This document shows positions 39,791-62,419 of a stretch of 64,000 nucleotides of DNA, piece by piece. Source of the DNA: Mobula hypostoma (Eukaryota); assembly GCF_963921235.1 (NCBI RefSeq), contig NC_086097.1, positions 68,016,001-68,080,000 on the forward strand, given 5' to 3'. A program made the translations under genes and the position numbers. A model generated the notes under the pieces. It did no database searches. It saw only the letters and a list, made by a program, of their open reading frames with translations, and was not told the origin of the DNA. Each line of letters starts with the position of its first letter. The first letter of the stretch is position 1.

Positions 39791-42700
39791 CCAGAACGGT
39801 GATACCTCCCCCAATGTCCACAGTCTGGATTGGCCTCTGTTTGGGAGGGCTGTCCCTGTGCCGCGGTGCCTGAGCCTGGACCGGCTGCGCCAAGTCCACA
39901 TGGGCCGATTTGAGTCAGTCCACCACGAAAACCTCCTCTCTCCCCCCAATGTCCAGCACGAACGTGGACCCGTTGTTCCTGATCACCTTAAACGGCCCCT
40001 CGTAGGGCCGCTGTAGCGGTGCCCGGTGTCCGCCCCCCGCCCCGTCGTACAAAAAGAAACTGACAGTTCTGCAGGTCTTTGGGTACGCACGTCGGGCTCT
40101 GTCCGTGCTGTGAAGTGGGGCCAGGTTACCGAGCCTCTCACGTAGTCTGTCCGGGACTGCTGTGGGTTCTTCCTCTTGACCCCTTGGGGCTGGTATGAAC
40201 TCTCCTGGGACGACCAGGGGTGTGCCGTACACCAACTCGGCCGACAAGGTGTGCAGATCCTCCTTAGGCGCTGTGCAGATTCCGAGCAGGACTCAGGGAA
40301 ACTCGTCCACCCAGTTAGGCCCCTCCAGGCGGGCCATGAGAGCTGACTTCAGGTGACGGTGGAAATGCTCCACTAGTCCGTTCGACTGTGGGTGGTAGGT
40401 AGTTGTGTGGTGTAGCTGCGATCCTAAAAGGCTGGCCATAGCTGACCACAGGCTGGAGGTGAACTGGGCGTCCCTTTCGGAGGTAATGTGGGCCGGTACC
40501 CCGAAGCGTGCTACCCAGGTTGTGATCAGTGCTCGGGCACAGGATTCGGAGGTGGTGTCAGTGAGCGGGACTGCCTCTGGCCATCTGGTGAACCGGTCTA
40601 CGTTAGTTAGGAGGTACTGCGCTCTTCGCGACACTGGCAGGGGCCCCACGATATCCACATGAATGTGGTCGAACCTCCGGCGGGGCTTTGGTGTGCCGCT
40701 GCACCTTGGCTGTTTGGCACTGAGTGCACGTTTTGGCCCATTCACTGACCTATTTACGAAGTCAATGCCACACGAACCTGTTGGCAACCAGCCGGATGGT
40801 TGTCCTGATGGAGGGGTGCGCTAAGATGTGAATGGATTCGAAAACCCGCCGGCGCCAGGCTGCTGGGACGACGGGGCGGGCTTGGCCGGTAGCTACATCA
40901 CATAGTAGGGTCCTCTCACCTGGGCCTACGGGGAGGTCTTGGAGCTGCAAACTGGAGACCGCAGTTCTGTAACTAGGGATCTCATCGTCTGCCTGCTGTG
41001 CCTCTGCCAGCGCTGCATAGTCCACCCCCTGGGACAGGGCCTGTATGGTAGGTCTGGATAGTGTGTCCGCCACGACGTTGTCCTTTCCCGAGACATGCCG
41101 GATGTCCGTCGTGTACTCGGAGATGGAGGACAGATGTCGCTGCTGGCGGGACGACCAGGGGTTGGACACCTTCGTGAACGTAAAGGTAAGCGGTTTGTGA
41201 TCTGTGAACGTGGTGAAGGGCCTACCTTCTAAAGAAGTACCTGAAATGCCAGATTGCCAGGTATAGTGCTAATAGCTCCTGGTCGAAAGCACTGTATTTG
41301 AGTTCGGGTGGTTGTAGGTGTTTGCTGAAGAACGCCAGGGGTTGCCAGCGACCTTCGATGAGTTGTTCCAGCACTCCACTGACTGCTGTGTTGGATGCGT
41401 CCACCGTAAGAGCAGTAGGAACGTCCGTTCTGGGGTGCACTAGCATCGCAGCGTTTGCCAAGGCTTCTTTGGTTTTAACGAAAGCGGCTGCGGCCTCTTC
41501 ATCACAAGTAATGTCCTTGCCCTTACCCGACATCAGAGTGAACAGGGGGTGCATGGTTCGGGCCGCTGAGGGGAGGAAACGGTGGTAGAAATTCACCATA
41601 CCCACGAATTCCTGCAGGCCTTTGGTTGTGTTGGGTCGGGGGAAGTGGCGGACCGCATCTACCTTGGCGGGCAGCGGGGTTGCCCCGTCTTTAGTAATCC
41701 TGTGGCCCAGGAAGTTGATGGTGTCGAGTCCGAACTGGCATTTGGCTGGGTTGATTGTAAGGCCGAATTCGCTCAGGCGGGAGTAGAGCTGGCGGAGGTG
41801 GGACAGATGCTCCTGACGACTACTGCTGGCTAGGAGGATGTCGTCCAAATAGATGAATGCAAAGTCCAGATCGCGTCCCACCGTGTCCATTAGCCGCTGG
41901 AATGTCTGTGCGGCATTCTTCAGACCGAACGGCATTCGGAGGAATTTGAAAAGTCCGAACGGGGTGATGAGTGCTGTTTTGGGGATGTCGTCCAGATGTA
42001 CCGGGATTTGATGGGATCCCCAGACGAGGTCTACCTTGGATAAGATCTTTGCGCCGTGTAGGTTTGCTGCGAAGTCTTGAATGTGTGGCACAGGGTAGCG
42101 GTCTGCCGTTGTAGCCTCGTTCAGTCTGCGTCGTCACTGCATGGTCTCCAGCCCCCCGTTGCCTTGGGCACCATGTGCAGTGGGGAGGCCCATGGGCTGT
42201 CAGACCGTCGTATGATCCCCAATTCCTCCATCTTCTTGAACTCCTCCTTCGCCAGTCGGAGCTTGTCCGGGGGAAGCCTTCGAGCACGGGCGTGGAGGGG
42301 TGGTCCCTGGGTCGGGATGTGGTGCTGTACTTAGTGTCTGGACATGGCTGCTGTGAACTGCGGTATCAGTACTGATGGGAAATCCGCCAGGACCCTGGTG
42401 AATTCGTCGTTGGACAGCGTGATGGAGTCCAGGTGTGGGGCTGGCAACTTTGCTTCACCCAGGGAGAACGTTTGAAAAGTCTTGGCTTGGACTAATCGCT
42501 TCCCTTGCAGGTCGACCAGCAGGCTGTGGGCTCGTAGAAAATCCGCCCCCAGGAGTGGTTGGGCCACGGCGGCCAGTGTGAAGTCCCACGTGAACTGGCT
42601 GGAGCTGAACTGTAGCCGCACCGTGCAGGTGCCGTAGGTTTGTATTGTGCTGCCGTTTGCGGCCCTCAGAGTGGGTCCGGGTTCTCTGTTGCGGGTGTCG

Positions 42701-42843
42701 TAACTCGTTGGAGGTAAAACGCTGATCTCTGCTCCGGTGTCGACCAAAAATCGGCGTCCCGACCGCTTGTCCCAGACGTACAGGAGGCTGTCTTGATGGC
42801 CAGCCGCCGTAGCCATCAGCGGCAGCTGGCCCTGGCGTTTCCC
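39791..42843 (-). pseudogene. pol: Gypsy Pol with stops and frameshifts (protease, RT, RNase H, integrase)
   Basis: FLVDTGAEISV; RMPFGLKNAAQTFQR, YLDD; VDAS..KYSAFDQELLA; HVDIVGPLP..DRFTRWPEA..YHPQSNGLVE, split over several ORFs. Confidence 0.93.
42798..42843 (-). promoter_or_regulatory. -1 programmed ribosomal frameshift signal (gag-pol)
   Basis: G GGA AAC in gag phase, 5-nt spacer, 12-bp stem GGCCAGCTGCCG/CGGCGGCTGGCC; the -1 frame runs into MATAAGHQ..DTG. Confidence 0.85.
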
Positions 42844-43520
42844 AGGAATTTGCAGGGTGGTCTACAGCGGCGGGCCTCTGTGCCCCACCACTGGTGGTAG
42901 AAGCACCATTGTTCGTTGGGCTCCTCACTCCCGTCGCCGGGTTTTGTAGGCTCTGCTGCCAGGCCTGGTCTGGTCTGCCGTTGGGCACGCGGCTTGGTGA
43001 TCTGTGCGACGGACGCCCCTCTGTCTTTCCTGGCATTCCACAGCACATCTGCCCGGGCCGCCACCTCCCGGGGGTTGCTGAAATCTGCGCCGGACAGCAG
43101 CAGCCATATGTCCTCGGGCAGTTGCTCTAGGAACGCCTGCTCAAACATGAGGCAGGGTTTATGTCCTTCAGCCAGGGCCAGCATCTCGTTCATTAATGCT
43201 GACGGCGGCCTGTCTCCCAAACCATCCAGCTGCATTAAGCGGCGTGCTCGTTCGCGCCGTGAAAGTCCGAAAGTCCTTATGAGCAGGGTTTTGAATGGTG
43301 TGTGTTTGCCGTCCTCCCGGGGCGACTCTATAAACTCCTCAACTTGTGCAGCTGTCTCCTGGTCGAGGGAGCTCAGCACGTAGTAGTAGCAAGTGGACTC
43401 TGAGGTTATCTGCCGAATGTGGAATTGTGCTTCTGCTTGTTCGAACCACAGATGGAATCGCAGCGGCCAAAAGCTTGGCAGTTTTAACAAAACTGCGTGA
43501 ACAGATGCGGCGTCAGTCAT
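42816..43520 (-). CDS. gag: Gypsy Gag (open frame)
   Basis: MTDAASVHAV.LKLPSFW..WFEQAEAQF..CFYHQWWGTEARRCRPPC. Confidence 0.85.
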   Translation of the reverse strand: MTDAASVHAVLLKLPSFWPLRFHLWFEQAEAQFHIRQITSESTCYYYVLSSLDQETAAQVEEFIESPREDGKHTPFKTLLIRTFGLSRRERARRLMQLDGLGDRPPSALMNEMLALAEGHKPCLMFEQAFLEQLPEDIWLLLSGADFSNPREVAARADVLWNARKDRGASVAQITKPRAQRQTRPGLAAEPTKPGDGSEEPNEQWCFYHQWWGTEARRCRPPCKFLGNARASCR

Positions 43521-43544
43521 CTCTGGTCCAAATATGGTTTGGGC

Positions 43545-43558
43545 CGTCAGGGTCACCA
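43545..43558 (-). promoter_or_regulatory. Primer-binding site, tRNA-Trp type
   Basis: TGGTGACCCTGACG versus TGGTGACCCCGACG, the complement of the vertebrate tRNA-Trp 3' end as recalled. Confidence 0.75.
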
Positions 43559-43560
43559 AA

Positions 43561-43848
43561 TGTAGCGGTGTGCTACACACAGCGCTAAAATAACCACACA
43601 TAGTCGGTGAGTTAGAGTTGCGATGAAAGAGGTTTATTTAAACTTCGCGGCCTGCTTTAAAACCTTCGCGTTCCCGCCCTCCCTGGGCGGGACTGCTGTG
43701 GGGAAAGCATATTTCCAGACCCTTTCCACGCGTGGGATTTTCCCCCTGCTGGCGAAGATGGCCTGGCGCCCTTTCTGGGGCCAGCCTATCTGCCTGCGCG
43801 CGCTGTTTCGTGAGCTGGTTCGTGTGTGCTAGAAAGTGGGTCGCCACA
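43561..43848 (-). repeat. Gypsy 5' LTR
   Basis: Direct repeat of 39490-39777, followed on the minus strand by the PBS. Confidence 0.96.
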
Positions 43849-53515: not shown

Positions 53516-55210
53516 TGGTTAATTCCTTGTGCTGCTTTGTTATCAGTTCCTCATGGTGTACACAGAAGGCAATGAGTGCATCTGGTAGTGAAGCATCACT
53601 GCCATTCATGATGTTGGGTTTCACTTTGGACAAAGTCATAGCCTGCAAACCAAACCAGAGTTGACATGCATCTGATGTTGATTCCAACCTAGCTTGGAAT
53701 TGTTTCGTAACTCTTGAAATAGCCCTCCACAAGTCATATCTAGTTTTCTTGTAGAGACCTGGGCCACCAGACTTAAGTTCCACAGATTTAGCAGCAGACT
53801 ACGAATCGGTTAGGCCTCCAAACGGTAGCCAAGATGTGGGATTAAGATTGCAAAGGCAGCTGAAAAAGGCATGTAATAAGGGTAATGACACAATTGTAAT
53901 GGGGGGACTTCAAAATGCAAAGGGACTGGGAAGATCAGGTTGGTGGCGGATCGCAAGAGGGGGAATTTGTTGAATGCCTACAAGATGGCTTTTTAGAGCA
54001 GCTTGTGCTTGAGCCTACTTGGGGAAAGGCTATCTTAGGTTGAGTGTTGTGTAATAACTCAGATCCTATTAGGGAACAATGTAAAGGAAACCTTAGGAGA
54101 AAGTGATCATAATATGATTGAATTCATTCTGCAATTTGAGAGGGAACAGCACAAATCACAGTATCGCAATGGAATAAAGGGAATTACAGAGGCACGTGGA
54201 GATTGCCCAGGTGGATTGGAGGAGGACACTGGTGGGGATAATGGTAGAGCAGAGATGGCTGAAATTCCTGAGAAGAGTTCACAAGGTGCAGGATAGATAC
54301 GTATGTCCTACAGAGGAAGAAATTCTCAACAGACAGGGGTAGGCAACCCCCTGACAAAGGAAGTTCAAGACTGCATAAAAGCCAGCGAAAGGGAATATAA
54401 GTGAGTAGGAAGTTGGATGATTGGGAAGCTTTTAAAGTTCAACAAAAGGCAACTGAAAAAGCAATAAGAAGGAAAAGATGAAATATGCAGGCAGAGTAGC
54501 CAATAATGTAAAGCAGGATACCAAAAGCTTTTTCTATTATATAAAGAGTAAAAGGGAGATGAAAGTTAATATTGGACCACTGGAAAATAATACTGCTGAG
54601 GTAGTAATTAGGGACAAAGAAATGGCAGATGAATCTAATGGGTACTTTGCATCAGTCTTCACTGTGCAAGACAGCAGCAGTGTGCCAAAGGTCCGTGAGT
54701 GTCAGGGAGCAGGAGGGAGGTTTGCTATTACAAAGGAAAAAGTGCAAGGCAAACTCAAAGGTCTTAAGGTGGATAAGTCACCTGGGCCAGATGGGCCAGA
54801 GTCTTGAGAGAGATTGCTGAAGAGACAAGAGATGCATTGGTCATGATCTTTCTTTCTTTCTTTTTAAATCTTTTTATTGAGTAAGTATACAAAAAAGGTA
54901 AGCCATATAAACATTAATACAATGTTAAAGTATAATAAAATTCCAAAAGATAACAATACCAAAAAGAAAATACTACAAACAATGTAATTTAAGCATAAGA
55001 AACCAAAATAACATAATAGTATACTAGATTTTATATATATCAATGGAAAAAAAGAAACCCCCCCCCCCAAAAAAAAACCCACCGTGCAACTAACTAAAAG
55101 CAAAGCAAAGCAATGGGCTAACTTGAAACCAAACAAAGTTAAACTTAAAATCACGTCCTCAATCCCGACCTCCATTAAAACAGTGAAAAAAAAAACAAGA
55201 AGGGTAAATA

Positions 55211-58200
55211 TTACATTAAATGAAAATATCGAATAAAAGGTCCCCAAATCTGTTCAAATTTAAATGAAGAATCATGAAGGTTACTTCTAATTTTCTCCAG
55301 ATTCAAACATAAAATCGTCTGAGAAAACCAAAAAAAGGTAGTTGGAGCATTAAGCTCTTTCCAATGTTGTAAAATACATCTTTTCGCCATTAAAGTAAGA
55401 AATGCAATCATTCTACGGGCTGAAGGGGAAAGATTACTAGAAATTTTAGGTAGTCCAAAGATAGCAGTAATAGGGTGAGGAGAGATATCTATATTTAATA
55501 CCTTAGAAATAATATTGAAAATATCTCTCCAAAAAGTTTCCAAAGTAGGGCAAGACCAAAACATATGAGTTAAAGAGGCTATCTGCCCCGAACATCTATC
55601 ACAGAAAGGATTAATATGCGAGTAAAAACGCGCTAACTTATCTTTGGACATATGTGCTCTATGCACCACTTTAAATTGAATTAGGGAATGCTTAGCACAA
55701 ATAGAGGAAGTATTAACTAATTGTAAAATCTGCCCCCAATCATCCACAGAAATGGTAAGCCCCAATTCCTGTTCCCAATCTACCCTAATCTTATCAAATG
55801 GAGCTTTCCTGAGTTTCATAATAATATTATAAATCATAGCCGATGCACCTTTCTGACATGGATTAAGGTTAATTATCGAATCTAAAATATATATAGGAGG
55901 AAGCATTGGAAAGGAAGGAAGTATAGTACTTAGAAAATTTCTAACTTGTAAATATCTAAAAAAATGTATTCTTGATAGGTTATATTTATTAGATAATTGT
56001 TCAAAAGACATAAGGGAACCATCTAAAAATAAATCCAAAAACCGTAAAATACCCTTAGTCTTCCAAGTTTGAAAAGCGCGATCCGTAAAAGAGGGAGGAA
56101 AAAATATGTTACCTAAAATAGGAATCGCTAACCCGAATTGATTAAGATCAAAAAATTTTCTGAATTGAAACCAAATACGCAAAGCATATTTAACAATCGG
56201 GTTAGAGACCTGCTTAAGGCGTTTCGAATCAAAAGGAAGAGATGAACCTAAAATAGAACCAAGTGTATAACCCTGAACAGATTGTAATTCCAATGCTACC
56301 CATTTAGGAATAGATAGTATATCCCGGTCAAGTAACCAAAATTTCATATGTCGAATATTAATAGCCCAATAATAAAATCTAAAGTTAGGTAATGCTAAAC
56401 CTCCATCTCTCTTAGCTTTCTGTAAATGTATTTTACCCAGTCTCGGATTCTTATTCTGCCAAATAAATGAAGAAATTTTAGAGTCGACTTTATCAAAAAA
56501 AGATTTAGGAACGAAAATTGGTAATGCCTGAAACACATATAAAAATTTTGGCAAAAAAAACATCTTAACTGCATTAATACGACCAATCAAAGTTAAATAT
56601 AAAGGAAACCATTTAGATGAAAGTTGAGTAATATGGTCTATTAATGGTAAAAAGTTAGTCTTAAATAAATCTTTATGTTTACAAGTAATTTTAATCCCAA
56701 GATATGAAAGGTAATTATTAATCAATTTAAATGGAAATTTATAATATAAGGGAAGATGTTTATTAATCGGAAAAAGTTCACTCTTACTAAGATTTAATTT
56801 ATTACCTGAGAAAAGACCAAATTGTGCTAATAACTCTAAAACAGCAGGAATAGATCTCTCAGGATTAGAAATATATAAAAGTAAATCATCAGCATAGAGT
56901 GATAATTTATGGGACTTTAATCCCCGAGTTATCCCAGTAATATTTGAAGATTCTCGAATAGCAATTGCAAGAGGTTCTAATGCAATATCAAATAATAGGG
57001 GACTAAGAGGACAGCCTTGTCGAGTACCACGAAAGAGAGGAAAAAAAGGTGAGTTTAAAGAGTTAGTACGAACCGAGGCTACAGGGGAGTGATATAACAG
57101 TTTAATCCAGGATATAAATTTCAGGCTAAAATTAAACATTTCAAGCACCTTAAATAAATAAGGCCATTCTACTCTATCAAAAGCTTTCTCGGCATCTAAA
57201 GAAATAACACACTCAGGAACATTTTGTGAGGGAGTATAAACGATATTTAACAATGTACGAATATTATAAAAAGAGTAACGACCTTTAATAAAACCCGTTT
57301 GGTCTTCCGAAATAATAGAAGGAAGTACTTTTTCTAGTCTATTTGCTAATAACTTAGAAAAGACTTTAGAATCAACATTTAATAAAGATATTGGTCTATA
57401 AGATGCACATTGAGCAGGGTCTTTATCCTTCTTTAGTATTAAAGAAATTGATGCTCTATTAAAAGATTCCGGAAGTTTACCAAGTTTCAAAGAAGCCTCA
57501 AAAACCTTATAGAGCCAGGGAATCAATAAAGAAGCAAAACATTTATAAAATTCAACGGTAAACCCATCAGGGCCAGGAGCTTTCCCCAGATTCATAGAAA
57601 AAATAACATTCTTAATCTCATCCATTGTAATGGAAGTATCTAATAAAGAAGACATATCCTGTGAAATCTGAGGAAAGTCTAACTTATCTAGAAAATCATT
57701 CATATATTTAGAATCTCGAGGAGACTCTGATTGATATAAAGAAGAATAAAAATCACAAAAGGTTTGATTAATCCCCACATGATCCAATATCAATCGATCA
57801 TTTTGGTTATAAATCTGATTGATTTGAGATTTAACATAATTAGATTTCAATTGATTAGCCAGCAGCTTGCCAATTTTATCACTGTGAACATAAAAATCAC
57901 TTCTTGTTTTCTTTAATTGGTTTACAATCGAGGATGAGAGTAGTAAACTGTGTTCCATTTGAAGTTCAGTTCTTTGTTTGTATAGCTCCTCAGAAGGAGC
58001 CATAACATATTTCTTATCAATTTCTTTAATCTTGTCCACAATTGCCATCTCCTCCTGCTTCTGTTTCTTCCTCAAAGCAACGGAATACGAAATAATCTGA
58101 CCCCGAATATAGGCTTTAAAAGTGTCCCAAAGAGTGTTAACCGAAATATCTTCTGTATGGTTAATTATAAAAAAAAGCTCAATCTGTTCATTCATAAAAT

Positions 58201-58987
58201 TAACAAAGTCCGAGTCCTGAAGCAACAGCGAATTAAAACGCCATTGTCTATTGTTTGGTATATTGGCCATAATTTTAATAGAAAGCTTAAGTGGAGCATG
58301 ATCCGAAATGGTTATAGAATCATAATCACATTTAATCACTGAAGGAATGAGACGAGAATCAATAAAAAAATAATCAATTCTTGAATAGGAATGATGAACA
58401 TGTGAAAAAAAGGAAAAATCTTTTTCCTGAGGATGCAGAAAACGCCAAATATCCGTCGACCCAGAATCAGAAAGGAAAAAATTAATCAAATTTGCAGATT
58501 TATTAGGTAAAGTCCGTAAAGGAGCTGAACGGTCCAAAGCTGGAGATAAACAGGTATTAAGATCTCCGCCCAAAATCAATGAAAACTCGTTCAAATTCGG
58601 AAACTGATCAAACAATGATTTATAAAATTCCGGACAATCCATATTAGGAGCATAAACATTAACCAAAACTACTTTTTTATTAAATAGTAAACCACTAACC
58701 AATAAAAATCTACCATTCGGATCAGAGATAATATCCTGTTGTATAAAAGTAACTGAGGAATCTATAAAAATAGAGACGCCTCGAATCTTAGCATTGGAGT
58801 TCGAATGAAATTGTTGTCCCTTCCAGAATTTGAAAAAACGTAGTCTGTCCCCCCTCCGTACATGGGTCTCTTGTAAAAATAAAATTTGTGCTTTAAGTCT
58901 CCGGAACACTTTAAAAACTTTTTTTCTTTTAATAGGATGATTAAGACCATTAGTATTCCAGGAGACAAAATTAATAATAGACTCCAT
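55211..58987 (-). CDS. L1 ORF2p (APE endonuclease, RT, CCHC), 1258 aa from the first ATG
   Basis: SWNTNGL, LQETH, GGDLN, SRIDY, SDH; KAPGPDG, LDAEKAFDRV, QGCPLSP, YADD; CDRC..H..WSC. No stops. Confidence 0.96.
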   Translation of the reverse strand: MESIINFVSWNTNGLNHPIKRKKVFKVFRRLKAQILFLQETHVRRGDRLRFFKFWKGQQFHSNSNAKIRGVSIFIDSSVTFIQQDIISDPNGRFLLVSGLLFNKKVVLVNVYAPNMDCPEFYKSLFDQFPNLNEFSLILGGDLNTCLSPALDRSAPLRTLPNKSANLINFFLSDSGSTDIWRFLHPQEKDFSFFSHVHHSYSRIDYFFIDSRLIPSVIKCDYDSITISDHAPLKLSIKIMANIPNNRQWRFNSLLLQDSDFVNFMNEQIELFFIINHTEDISVNTLWDTFKAYIRGQIISYSVALRKKQKQEEMAIVDKIKEIDKKYVMAPSEELYKQRTELQMEHSLLLSSSIVNQLKKTRSDFYVHSDKIGKLLANQLKSNYVKSQINQIYNQNDRLILDHVGINQTFCDFYSSLYQSESPRDSKYMNDFLDKLDFPQISQDMSSLLDTSITMDEIKNVIFSMNLGKAPGPDGFTVEFYKCFASLLIPWLYKVFEASLKLGKLPESFNRASISLILKKDKDPAQCASYRPISLLNVDSKVFSKLLANRLEKVLPSIISEDQTGFIKGRYSFYNIRTLLNIVYTPSQNVPECVISLDAEKAFDRVEWPYLFKVLEMFNFSLKFISWIKLLYHSPVASVRTNSLNSPFFPLFRGTRQGCPLSPLLFDIALEPLAIAIRESSNITGITRGLKSHKLSLYADDLLLYISNPERSIPAVLELLAQFGLFSGNKLNLSKSELFPINKHLPLYYKFPFKLINNYLSYLGIKITCKHKDLFKTNFLPLIDHITQLSSKWFPLYLTLIGRINAVKMFFLPKFLYVFQALPIFVPKSFFDKVDSKISSFIWQNKNPRLGKIHLQKAKRDGGLALPNFRFYYWAINIRHMKFWLLDRDILSIPKWVALELQSVQGYTLGSILGSSLPFDSKRLKQVSNPIVKYALRIWFQFRKFFDLNQFGLAIPILGNIFFPPSFTDRAFQTWKTKGILRFLDLFLDGSLMSFEQLSNKYNLSRIHFFRYLQVRNFLSTILPSFPMLPPIYILDSIINLNPCQKGASAMIYNIIMKLRKAPFDKIRVDWEQELGLTISVDDWGQILQLVNTSSICAKHSLIQFKVVHRAHMSKDKLARFYSHINPFCDRCSGQIASLTHMFWSCPTLETFWRDIFNIISKVLNIDISPHPITAIFGLPKISSNLSPSARRMIAFLTLMAKRCILQHWKELNAPTTFFWFSQTILCLNLEKIRSNLHDSSFKFEQIWGPFIRYFHLM

Positions 58988-59709
58988 AAATCCTAAAGTC
59001 AACCCACAACAGGGAGGATTGACAATAGGCGCGACCCACAAACCCGGAGAGGGAACAGAACATACAAAAGATACCGGGGAAAAGGACGCAACCAGTACTT
59101 CAATAATGTATATAGCCCAAAGAAAAACAAACTAAAACGTGAAGCCCCTCCCGCCACCCCCCAACCCAAGACCCCAAGGCAAAATCTAAAGCAGACCCGC
59201 CAGAAAGAAGCAAGCGCTAAAACTACCCCCATGACTTCCGGTATACGCTCCCTAAAAAAAAGGTATAAATATGAAAAGGATCAGCTAATTGTAAAACAGT
59301 AAAAAAATAAGTAAAAAAAAAGTTAGCTCAATTAGAATACACACAGAACAGAACAAAAGCCGGAAAATATATATTAAAAAAAACCACAATAAACCTCAAA
59401 CTCATGAATAGACACAGCAACAAAAAAAATAGGATTATTAACATAAAGTGATTATAAAAAGCAAAACAGAATAAAATTTAAACAAAAACTACAAAATTTA
59501 AGGCCGCACAGGAAATACGTAAGATGACAAAAGGGAAGTAACCACCCAGAATCCCCTGGGAAAAGAAAGAAATGACGCAGTTAAAAAGAAAGTTTAGTAG
59601 CCATATTAAGAAATCGAAAGTAAACTTTTCTGCCCAAATAGGGCACAGAAAAGTTAAAACCAACCAATTCACAGCCTCCGATCGACGGAGAAAATTAAAA
59701 AGAAAGCAA

Positions 59710-60609
59710 TTAAGATGTTGGAGATGACAGTTGATCCAGATAACTCTGGGCATCCGATGGAGAATCAAAAAAACGAAGGGCTCCATCTGACATGCGAATC
59801 CTTAGACGTGCAGGGTACAGCAGCGCTGGTCTTAAATCCCTCTTATAGAATTCCGACATCACGGATCTGTAACGGACCCGTTGGTCCCAGATTGGTTTAC
59901 TGAAATCTTCCACGAATCGGAACTTAAGATCCGAAAAATCAATGAAACCTTTAGATCGAGCGAATCGAAACAGTCTCTCCTTGTCTTGAAAGTAATGAAA
60001 ACGTAAAATAACATGCCTAGGTCTATCTGACCTAGACGAGTATAATGGGATTCTGTGAACACGATCCAGTAGCGGTGGTTGGTCAGGAAATACAGTAGGG
60101 AATGCATCTTTTAAAAGTTGGGAGAAATATTTCATGGGGTTGTTACCTTCAGCGGCTTCCCTCACGCCAATCATTCGTAAATTCTGCCGTCGCATTCTAG
60201 ATTCCAAGTCAAAGTTTTTAAAAGTCAAAAAGTCAAGTTTCTTCTTCATTACATTAATTGTTTCTTCGATTTTCCCCATCTTAAGCTCACTTTGTTGCGC
60301 GAATTTTTGAAGATCAGATATAGCCGACTGATGTTCCGCAATACATGTTTGCATCTTATCAATTAAACCGGCAATTTTCTGGAAATTAGTTGAGATTTCC
60401 GTATGAATCAGGTCTTTAACAGGGCCTGCAATTTCCGTACGAATCATCTCCCTAACAGAGGTTGAAATTTCCCTCTGAATTAACTCCGATATAGCTTTCA
60501 AAGTCACCGGTGATTCAGTCGGGGGGAGATCCGTACCTTTCGGTTTAACCGGAGGTTTACCATCCTTGCCGTTTTTCCCGTTCTTAGACATAGTAGATCT
60601 AAGTTCCAT
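59710..60609 (-). CDS. L1 ORF1p RNA-binding protein (299 aa)
   Basis: Coiled coil, then LESRMRRQNLRMIG, LDRVHR, PRHVILRF, FVEDFS, LLYPARLRI. Confidence 0.93.
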   Translation of the reverse strand: MELRSTMSKNGKNGKDGKPPVKPKGTDLPPTESPVTLKAISELIQREISTSVREMIRTEIAGPVKDLIHTEISTNFQKIAGLIDKMQTCIAEHQSAISDLQKFAQQSELKMGKIEETINVMKKKLDFLTFKNFDLESRMRRQNLRMIGVREAAEGNNPMKYFSQLLKDAFPTVFPDQPPLLDRVHRIPLYSSRSDRPRHVILRFHYFQDKERLFRFARSKGFIDFSDLKFRFVEDFSKPIWDQRVRYRSVMSEFYKRDLRPALLYPARLRIRMSDGALRFFDSPSDAQSYLDQLSSPTS

Positions 60610-62419
60610 CCAGTTGTCGGAGAATTCAGTTTAATTCAAAGTATTGTAAGAGTTGATGCCTTAATGGTTAATTAAAGTATAGCTGACCATAGAGAAAAAA
60701 AACTCAGAGGTAATGGAGCGAGTCAAGAACGCGACTTCACTCCATGAGCGCTACCAGAAGTCTCCCGGTCATGATCTTTCAAGCATCACTTAATTCTGGC
60801 ATGGTCCCGTTGGACTGGTAGATTGCAAATGTCACTCCACTCTTTAAGAAGGGAGAAAGGCAAAAGAAAGGAAATTATAGGCCAGTTACCCTAACCTCAG
60901 TGGTTGGGAAAGTGTTGGAGTCTATTATTAAGGATGAGCTTTAGGGGTACTTGGAGAATAATGATAAAATAAGTAAAAGTCAGCATGGATTCTGTAAGGA
61001 GAAATCTTGCCTGACCAATCTGTTAGAGTTCTTTGAGGAAATAACAAGTAGGATGGACAAAGGAGAGGCAGTGGATGTTATTTATTTGTATTTTCAGAAG
61101 GCATTTGATAAGGTGTCATACGTGAGGCTGCTTAACAAGATAAAATCCTATTAGCATTACAGGAGAGATAGTGGCATGGATAGCGGAATGGCTGACAGGC
61201 AGGAGGCAGCGAGTGGGTATAAAAGGGGCCTTTTCTAGTTAACTGTCAGTGACTAGTGGGGTTTCTCAGGGATCAGTATTGGGATTATTGCTTTTCACAT
61301 TGTCTGTCAATAATTTAAAAAAGTGGCACAAGGAATAGTGTTGGAAAATATATGATAATACATTCTGGTAAAAGGAACAATAGAGTGGACTATTATCTAA
61401 ATGGGGAGAAGATTCAAACATCAGAGGTGCAAAGGGACTTAGGAGTCCTCATGCAAGACTCCCTGAAGGTTAGTTTACAGATTGAGTCTGTGGTAAAGAA
61501 GGCAAATGCAATGTTGGCATTTATTTCAAGGGGAATAGAATATAAAAGTAAGGAAATAATGTTGAGCCTTTACAAGACACTAATCAGGCCTCTCTTGGAG
61601 TATTGTCAACAGTTTTGGGCTTCATATCTCAGAAAGGATGTGTTGTCAATGGAGAGAGTCCAAAGGAGGTTCACGAGGATGATTCTGGGAATGAAGGGGT
61701 TAACATGAGGAGCGTTTGGCAGCTTTGGGCCTGTACTCACTGGAATTTAGAAGAATGTGGGGGGGGGGTGGAATTCTCACTGAAACCTACCAAGGGTTGA
61801 AAAGACTAGATAGAGTGGATATGGAGAGGATGTTTCCTATGGTGGAGGTATCCAGAAACTCAATCATAGGAAACACTGAGGCGCGACCCTTTAGAACAGA
61901 GGTAAGGAGGATTTTTTTCGCCAGAGAGTAGTAAATCTGTGGAATGCTCTGTCACAGACTGCAGTGAAGGCCAAGTACATGTGTATATTTAAGGTGGAAG
62001 CTGATTGTTTCCTTTTCGGTCAGAGCATCAAGGGATATGGTGAGAAGACAGGTGTATAGAGTTGAGTGGGATCTGGGATCAGCCATGATAGATTGGCAGA
62101 GCAGACTTGATGGGCTGAATGGCCTAATGTTGCTCCTATGTCTTGTGGAACCTCCTGGTTCATCCATGACTTTTGATTTGGGAATATACAGCAAGCTTTT
62201 GAAGGCACACACGCATCCACAGTCCTTCGATTCAAAGCAGTACTGTAAGTGCTCCTGTGCCTCCCTTGCTCATACCTTCTTGGTGCTCACTACTGAGTCA
62301 TCAGTCTCTGCCTATACTCAGGGAGTGGAATTACAACCAGGTGATCAGACTTTCTGAAGTGTGAGCATGGAAACGCACTGCATGCATCCTTGATGGTGGT
62401 GTAACAGTAGTGTAACACA

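Follow-up and report, generated by a model that had tools for sequence, protein, structure and literature searches.

The two open reading frames (ORFs) of a full-length L1 retrotransposon in Mobula hypostoma are separated by a long spacer, and one part of this spacer is complementary to the first nucleotides (nt) of the element's own RNA. The element lies on the minus strand of the stretch studied here (assembly GCF_963921235.1, contig NC_086097.1, positions 68,016,001 to 68,080,000), which is called the window; it is 64,000 nt long, and its positions are counted from 1. Judged from sequence comparison, the complementarity is probably (about 0.7) one lineage's form of a duplex between leader and spacer that is conserved among L1 families and is under selection. 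The further idea that this duplex passes ribosomes across ORF1 to ORF2, in the manner of the pararetroviral shunts, is drawn by analogy and is put forward tentatively, at somewhat less than even odds.

A long-range match between leader and spacer

Element nt 5–21 (60762–60746) are complementary to nt 1517–1534 (59250–59233) over 17 pairs, of which 15 are Watson-Crick and two are G-U, with one bulged A (-28.7 kcal/mol). An original prediction, made from the letters of the window, had described this pairing, and both segments, the pairs, and the bulge are where it put them. Its measurements were accurate as well: the spacer that it called U-rich and about 720 nt long has 722 nt, including 345 T, and the end of the spacer arm is 245 nt from the ORF2 AUG, as it had estimated. 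The 5'-terminal arm and the spacer arm are about 1.5 kb apart in the RNA.

The role of chance was assessed with dinucleotide shuffles of the window spacer. Matches of equal strength, which the original prediction would have counted against itself if common in shuffled spacers, were rare (0–5 of 300–1000 with queries of 22–25 nt). The 17-bp match was equalled in 5/1000 shuffles with a 25-nt query, in 11/1000 when the target was the last 300 nt of the spacer only, and in 0/300 with a 22-nt query. When the score of a complement alignment was used, it was matched in 0/1000 shuffles with the 25-nt query and in 28/1000 with a 60-nt query. Also, of the 25-mers taken from leader and ORF1 (1032 in all), the five that ranked highest as partners of the spacer were the five 5'-most.

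In a predicted fold of 1800 nt, the helix forms with a probability (P) of 0.98, outcompetes local folds, and is stacked against a hairpin in the leader (nt 22–54). An Rfam covariance-model search over 58900–60800 gave no match at E<=1 to a known structured RNA or internal ribosome entry site (IRES) family. A second long-range helix of 9 bp (60680–60688 with 59279–59287) is a weak candidate from the same modeling, with 9 bp reached in 34/2000 shuffles, yet in 8/71 real tiles too. At 60676–60693, the loose-end consensus of two contigs from run X1 has a leader variant that would change this helix's one G-U pair to A-U if the spacer side is unchanged. A branch-point-like word with a U-tract and AG lies immediately 5' of the spacer arm (59252–59284).

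Possible pairing partners in other L1 families

Nine fish-type L1 loci (L001–L009) were recovered from metagenomes. Those with a readable 5' end or a family mate (L001, L003, L004, L006, and L008), together with L002, the start of which was guessed, served to test the terminus; L003 and L004 belong to one family, neither L005 nor L009 has a spacer that could be used, and L007 is outside the test set. The leaders of these loci, of the window element, and of published families share one order: the start motif, an AUG with a quick stop, and a GCTCC-type motif called motif 4 (nt ~45–60), which was noted for frog L1s in PMC5381506. Motif 4 was picked as a query post hoc, after inspection. It passes the shuffle test against the spacer in L001 (4/200) and L008 (3/200), and in both loci its partner sits 350–360 nt 5' of the conserved SWN codons of ORF2.

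The leader was also compared by eye with the spacer for every zebrafish (17) and frog (12) consensus that the supplement of PMC5381506 gives. Unbroken Watson-Crick runs over motif 4 reach at least 8 in 12/29 families, at least 9 in 6/29, and at least 10 in 3/29. The zebrafish runs are 8 in L1-1A, 10 in 1B, 8 in 1D, 8 in 10B, 9 in 13A, 10 in 16B, and 8 in 17B, and the frog runs are 11 in L1-11, 8 in 15, 9 in 17, 8 in 18, and 9 in 29. With G-U pairs and small bulges allowed, several of the helices lengthen, for example to ~22 bp in zebrafish 13B, 17 in 10B, 16 in 7C and 12A, and 15/16 in frog 29. Zebrafish 8 and 11Aa and frog 6, 32, and 39 showed no clear motif-4 partner. As far as the eye can judge, the spacer words appear to be specific to their families, for example TGCAGAGC (1A), TCAGTATGGA (1B), ACGGAGCTGT (16B), and ACCCACGGA (frog 17), and two 8-mer matches across families were noticed.

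The null rate for these runs comes from the same rule applied to the loci analyzed here, not to the zebrafish and frog consensuses. It is 4.7% (at least 8), 1.5% (at least 9), and 0.5% (at least 10) in 7200 shuffles, and 2.2%, 0, and 0 in 135 overlapping non-cognate tiles. Against this null, 12/29 has a binomial P of 3e-9, or 5e-6 if the null rate is doubled. Matches of 8 bp were also seen by eye in long spacers of mammals and a lizard (opossum, elephant, hyrax, and lizard AC17) and were not counted, since these spacers are purine-rich and cross-matches occur.

The order of the partners within the spacer recurs too. By eye, the sequence after the motif-4 partner can pair with the 5' terminus in L001, L003, and zebrafish L1-6, 7C, 16B, and 1B. 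The spacer arm of the window shows a compact version of this order: its terminal helix has grown to 17 bp and its motif-4 helix has shrunk to 6 bp. In frog 15, 17, 29, and 46, the leader starts with a G-run and the motif-4 partner in the spacer is followed by a C-run, where fish have GGAAG (by eye); this is possibly a covariation of the terminal helix at the level of the class.

A hint that the spacer arm sits at the border of a conserved 3' block of the spacer comes from an overlay of contigs on the window. The summed contig depth in the bin of the spacer arm is 73518 in organism B and 16126 in organism D, and in the three bins upstream it is at most 417 and 7, respectively, although contig depth does not measure copy number and cover may be reduced by homopolymers. 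One organism-B contig covers 59170–59282 with 15 differences. In run X5, the RNA status of which was guessed, the summed contig depth reaches its minimum on the arm's ORF2 side, and none of the joints skips ORF1; the run was not used, as contigs are blind to strand, starts, and levels.

Comparison with related fish L1s, which the original prediction had proposed, thus gave a divided answer. The exact terminal match is found in 0/6 teleost loci, and motif 4 has, by eye, a partner in the 12 of 29 families above. The long-range duplex has gained comparative support, with the partner in relatives being mainly motif 4 and not the terminus, and its role in ORF2 translation is one that we infer.

The searches that yielded the loci had other outcomes. 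ORF1 had no match in viral contigs or prokaryotic genomes. With ORF2, there was nothing, or only partial or distant loci (L014–L035), which were not used: L015–L017 are large viral contigs (186–211 kb) with partial L1 ORF2-like sequence (37–41% identity), and L019–L035 carry L1/Tx1-type ORF2 in contigs filed as bacterial genomes, probably as eukaryotic contamination. Four exact matches to the spacer motif occur in viral contigs (L010–L013). In the spacer of L003, at ~1635–1647, there is a word that we take to be CTCF/YY1-like.

Short reading frames at both ends of the proposed duplex

In 28/29 zebrafish and frog families, the first AUG is closed in frame within 1–5 codons (by eye). A similar short upstream ORF (uORF) is present in 6/7 loci, window included, with a background of 665/2428. 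An upstream AUG in human L1 has been described previously. In nine lizard clade-1 families, where the spacer is short or missing, the first uORF has 7–11 codons, is much longer, or is absent (by eye).

At the other end, the first base after the window's helix is the A of an AUG that opens 77 codons, with the stop 11 nt 5' of the ORF2 AUG. This openness is matched in 537/5000 shuffles, so the ORF is weak evidence alone. L003 too has an AUG at the first base after its helix, and spacer ORFs of 73–107 codons that begin close to the arm and end close to the start of ORF2 are found in 5/6 elements (arm edges by eye); in L001, the spacer ORF and the ORF2 start overlap in AUGA.

Comparison with known systems

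The window element is built like the fish-type L1s described by Boissinot and Sookdeo (PMC5381506), with a short leader, a GACTTCCGG-type start, a long T-rich spacer, and the same ORF1 and ORF2 domains. In that study, the zebrafish L1 start is given as GGACTTCCGGTT and described as an XrpFI site; the start motif in the window's 5' arm differs by one letter from the zebrafish consensus. Unlike in the present analysis, the spacer was folded there alone; no common structure was reported, and an IRES was proposed. The sections of that paper on the 5' untranslated region, the spacer, and functional implications make no mention of leader-spacer pairing or of the short uORF. No description of such pairing in L1 was found in the literature searched, whose coverage ends short of subscription journals and Repbase reports.

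One likeness is to the uORF-dependent shunts of cauliflower mosaic virus, rice tungro bacilliform virus (RTBV), and rice tungro spherical virus (RTSV) (PMC5902531). There, too, a 5'-proximal short uORF is followed by an arm that pairs far downstream, with letters that are not conserved, and in the pararetroviruses the short uORF before the long-range stem is the take-off site of the shunt. The stop context of the RTBV and RTSV uORFs, GAG UAG UCG, occurs in L003 as well. The window has a 5'-proximal short uORF with a proper stop, and in many zebrafish and frog families the arm starts ~10–20 nt past the uORF stop (by eye). However, the viral shunts bypass a leader of ~500 nt, whereas the window L1 would bypass a coding ORF and spacer (1.5 kb).

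Another parallel is the Pol of duck hepatitis B virus (PMC5902531), in which the reverse transcriptase (RT) gene is also second on a bicistronic pregenomic RNA, and ribosomes get to it from close to the 5' end, skipping the first ORF by shunting. It is an unrelated element, and its take-off is undefined, with no defined long-range helix. Termination and reinitiation have been described for ORF2 of human L1 and for the stop-start non-LTR case of Kojima et al. 2005 (via PMC5381506, PMC4072516, and PMC5902531). In both, ORF1 ends beside ORF2, whereas ORF1 of the window ends 722 nt away; here, the spacer ORF would supply the stop near the ORF2 AUG. Finally, the spacer of a megabat L1 was inhibitory in constructs assembled from blocks of ORF1 plus intergenic region and of ORF2 (PMC4072516). 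The intact spacer did 8.8-fold better than a shuffled one, and removal of AUGs reduced activity. The methods of that paper suggest that the bat leader was absent from the constructs.

Weighing the evidence

The above-chance terminal match, the motif-4 survey, the tests in L001 and L008, the recurring order of partners, the uORFs, the spacer ORFs, the hint from contig depth, and the megabat data are best read as support for a conserved duplex that may take ribosomes toward ORF2. A number of observations weigh against this reading. The first 22–25 nt have no significant spacer partner in 6/6 teleost loci, in either the shuffle or the complement-alignment test, and the exact 5'-terminal match is lineage-specific because none of them passes. 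The motif-4 test fails in L003 (90/200) and L006 (59/200) and is marginal in the window (13/200), and one non-cognate pair of leader and spacer outscores the cognate. The survey was post hoc, unblinded, and unscripted, and the families are related. Among 40 of the 124 variant rows of the overlay, there are no variants inside either arm, so no covariation within the family is readable.

The folds also give reasons for caution. Each half of the helix has an alternative local fold. A P near 1 in the fold model proves little, because full folds of L001 and L006 give confident long-range helices at other partners and that of L008 gives none. Even with nt 1–42 forced open, motif 4 of the window stays unpaired with the spacer arm (P 0). 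It pairs instead with the region of the ORF2 start codon (7 bp, P 0.84). The uORF (60739–60745) and ORF2 (58981–58987) start with seven identical letters, and motif 4 can therefore pair with either; this pairing was taken as chance, being absent by eye from other loci.

Other points concern translation. Between the arm and the SWN codons, there are 6–12 AUGs in four teleost loci. The short uORF is also found in 12/14 mammalian L1s (by eye), most of them without a long spacer, so it need not serve the duplex and may be a mere promoter AUG closed by a quick stop. In the viral shunts (PMC5902531), the uORF ends a few nt ahead of the helix at the base of a large stem, and the landing site is UA-rich and unstructured. 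In the window, the strong 17-bp helix instead precedes the uORF, and the landing side is G/U-rich, has an AUG at its start and AUGs beyond it, and folds in the prediction. The window L1 thus falls outside the canonical pararetroviral shunt class, and the claim is limited to its working like a shunt, or by cap-tethered entry.

In the mechanism proposed, the leader would pair with the 3' part of the spacer as a long-range RNA duplex that loops out ORF1 and ~460 nt of spacer, setting the capped 5' end beside the last 245 nt before ORF2. A fraction of the ribosomes recruited at the cap would then cross the helix by shunt or cap-tethered entry (in relatives, after the tiny uORF) and resume in the 3' spacer. 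They could reach ORF2 by leaky scanning, or by termination of the spacer ORF near the ORF2 AUG and reinitiation. That the helix forms in cells, and each of these steps of translation, we infer.

A duplex that is real and selected might also do something other than deliver ribosomes to ORF2, although this is rather unlikely. It could be a check for full length, or a switch, that once formed shuts the leader near the cap, reduces ORF1 translation, and favors ribonucleoprotein assembly, or it could tune a structured element in the 3' spacer such as the predicted IRES. The comparative evidence is the same for both readings. In the model, a helix on nt 5–21 stacked on the leader hairpin would impede 43S loading, many AUGs lie downstream of the arm, and an IRES is predicted in 32/36 long spacers (PMC5381506), though these are predictions only. 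What such a switch leaves unexplained are the AUGs that begin directly behind the helix in both the window and L003, and the spacer ORFs that end near ORF2, each individually weak.

It is improbable that the spacer motif acts as DNA, as an ETS/GABP site set in sequence that is richer in G+C and carries CpG, from which either an antisense transcript would run through ORF1 or an internal mRNA for ORF2 only would start. Read on the plus strand, the spacer arm does contain a perfect ETS core with its CpG intact (59233–59243). The G+C content climbs from ~0.29 to 0.5 immediately downstream of the arm. The same motif marks zebrafish L1 starts (PMC5381506), and human L1 has an antisense promoter. However, the match extends 7 nt past the ETS core, none of 5 teleost spacers contains the full CCGGAAG, and family-specific complements without an ETS site are common. 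The antisense promoter that the original prediction offered as its second reading is weakened by these points, while the 5' arm is the fish L1 start motif of the XrpFI/ETS type and could still act as a promoter.

A neutral scar, such as an inverted copy of the 5' end from an ancestral template switch, or a lucky match from scanning has similarly poor prospects. Such an origin would suit the lineage-specific 17-bp match, and post hoc pattern-finding inflates matches. It does not explain why differing complementary words face the same leader motif across many families, why the arm sits, as the depth hints, at the edge of the better-conserved 3' block, or why both mismatches are G-U compatible. 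Last and very improbable is a spacer arm that starts a second exon, with pairing between exons aiding the splicing out of ORF1 to leave an ORF2-only mRNA: an acceptor-like sequence ends at 59252, but the sequence after the 5' arm lacks a strong donor, an acceptor is missing ahead of most zebrafish partners (by eye), and U-rich spacers easily yield acceptor-like sites.

The element and its surroundings

The features discussed are collected in Table 1. A target-site duplication (TSD) of 14 bp sets the limits of the element, and together with the A-rich tail, the start motif, the long T-rich spacer, the domains, and the intact ORFs, it places the element in the L1 clade, fish type, by sequence. 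The leader is 157 nt long. The ORF1 protein, with the L1 RBD (Transposase_22), has 31–39% identity with fish L1 ORF1p, and the ORF2 protein, with an APE endonuclease, RT, and a C-terminal zinc knuckle, has 42–65% identity among the 120 homologs listed. The named relatives of both are fish L1 proteins; a zf-RVT profile match in ORF2 is slightly below its cut-off. There is no second copy of the element in the window. The empty target site at 60767 is seen as contig loose ends in all four runs examined. The element is inserted in an abundant older repeat, whose empty site occurs commonly in each of the four runs (54839–54852, 60767–60780). Elsewhere in the window, a G+C-rich block (41222–43601) has minus-strand ORFs that presumably correspond to the gag, protease, and RT of an LTR retroelement.

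Table 1. Positions in the window of the L1 element and of the features of its leader, spacer, and ORFs
Feature	Positions	Strand	Basis or remark
L1 element, full-length, A-rich tail	54853..60766	-	5' end = 60766
TSD, 5' copy, 14 bp	60767..60780	-	TSD; empty-site loose ends
TSD, 3' copy, 14 bp	54839..54852	-	TSD
5' arm, nt 5–21: fish L1 start motif (ETS/XrpFI-type) plus 7 nt	60746..60762	-	helix P 0.98, 1800-nt fold
uORF, two codons (Met-Glu-stop), nt 22–30	60737..60745	-	
Leader hairpin, nt 22–54, stacked on 5' arm; contains uORF and motif 4	60713..60745	-	predicted fold
Leader motif 4 (nt 47–52), clade-wide spacer-pairing site; 6-bp complement only in this copy	60715..60720	-	
Leader arm of possible second 9-bp long-range helix (weak)	60680..60688	-	P 0.85 in fold
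ORF1, 299 aa, Transposase_22	59710..60609	-	E 2.9e-9
Inter-ORF spacer, U-rich, 722 nt	58988..59709	-	
Spacer arm of possible second helix; overlaps branch-point-like word	59279..59287	-	predicted fold
Spacer arm: motif-4 partner, then 5'-terminus partner; ETS site when read on + strand	59233..59251	-	
77-codon spacer ORF, candidate relay ORF	58999..59232	-	weak alone
Predicted hairpin immediately 5' of ORF2 AUG	58992..59029	-	fold
ORF2, 1258 aa, uninterrupted: endonuclease, RT, zinc knuckle	55211..58987	-	

Implications for long-spacer L1s

Most non-mammalian L1s have to translate ORF2 across AUG-containing spacers of 400–1000 nt, and the current proposal for how they do so is the prediction of an IRES. 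A duplex specific to each family would mean that long spacers should be assayed with their own leader. One could go further and consider, as a doubtful extension, that the long-spacer L1s of vertebrates share an ancestral circuit consisting of the cap, a tiny uORF, a co-varying helix that skips ORF1, and a relay ORF that ends at the ORF2 start. If this were true, ORF2p would be made solely from RNAs that retain the element's own 5' end. The circuit would then replace the IRES proposal, and it would explain why long spacers persist despite being inhibitory in constructs put together from blocks of ORF1, spacer, and ORF2.

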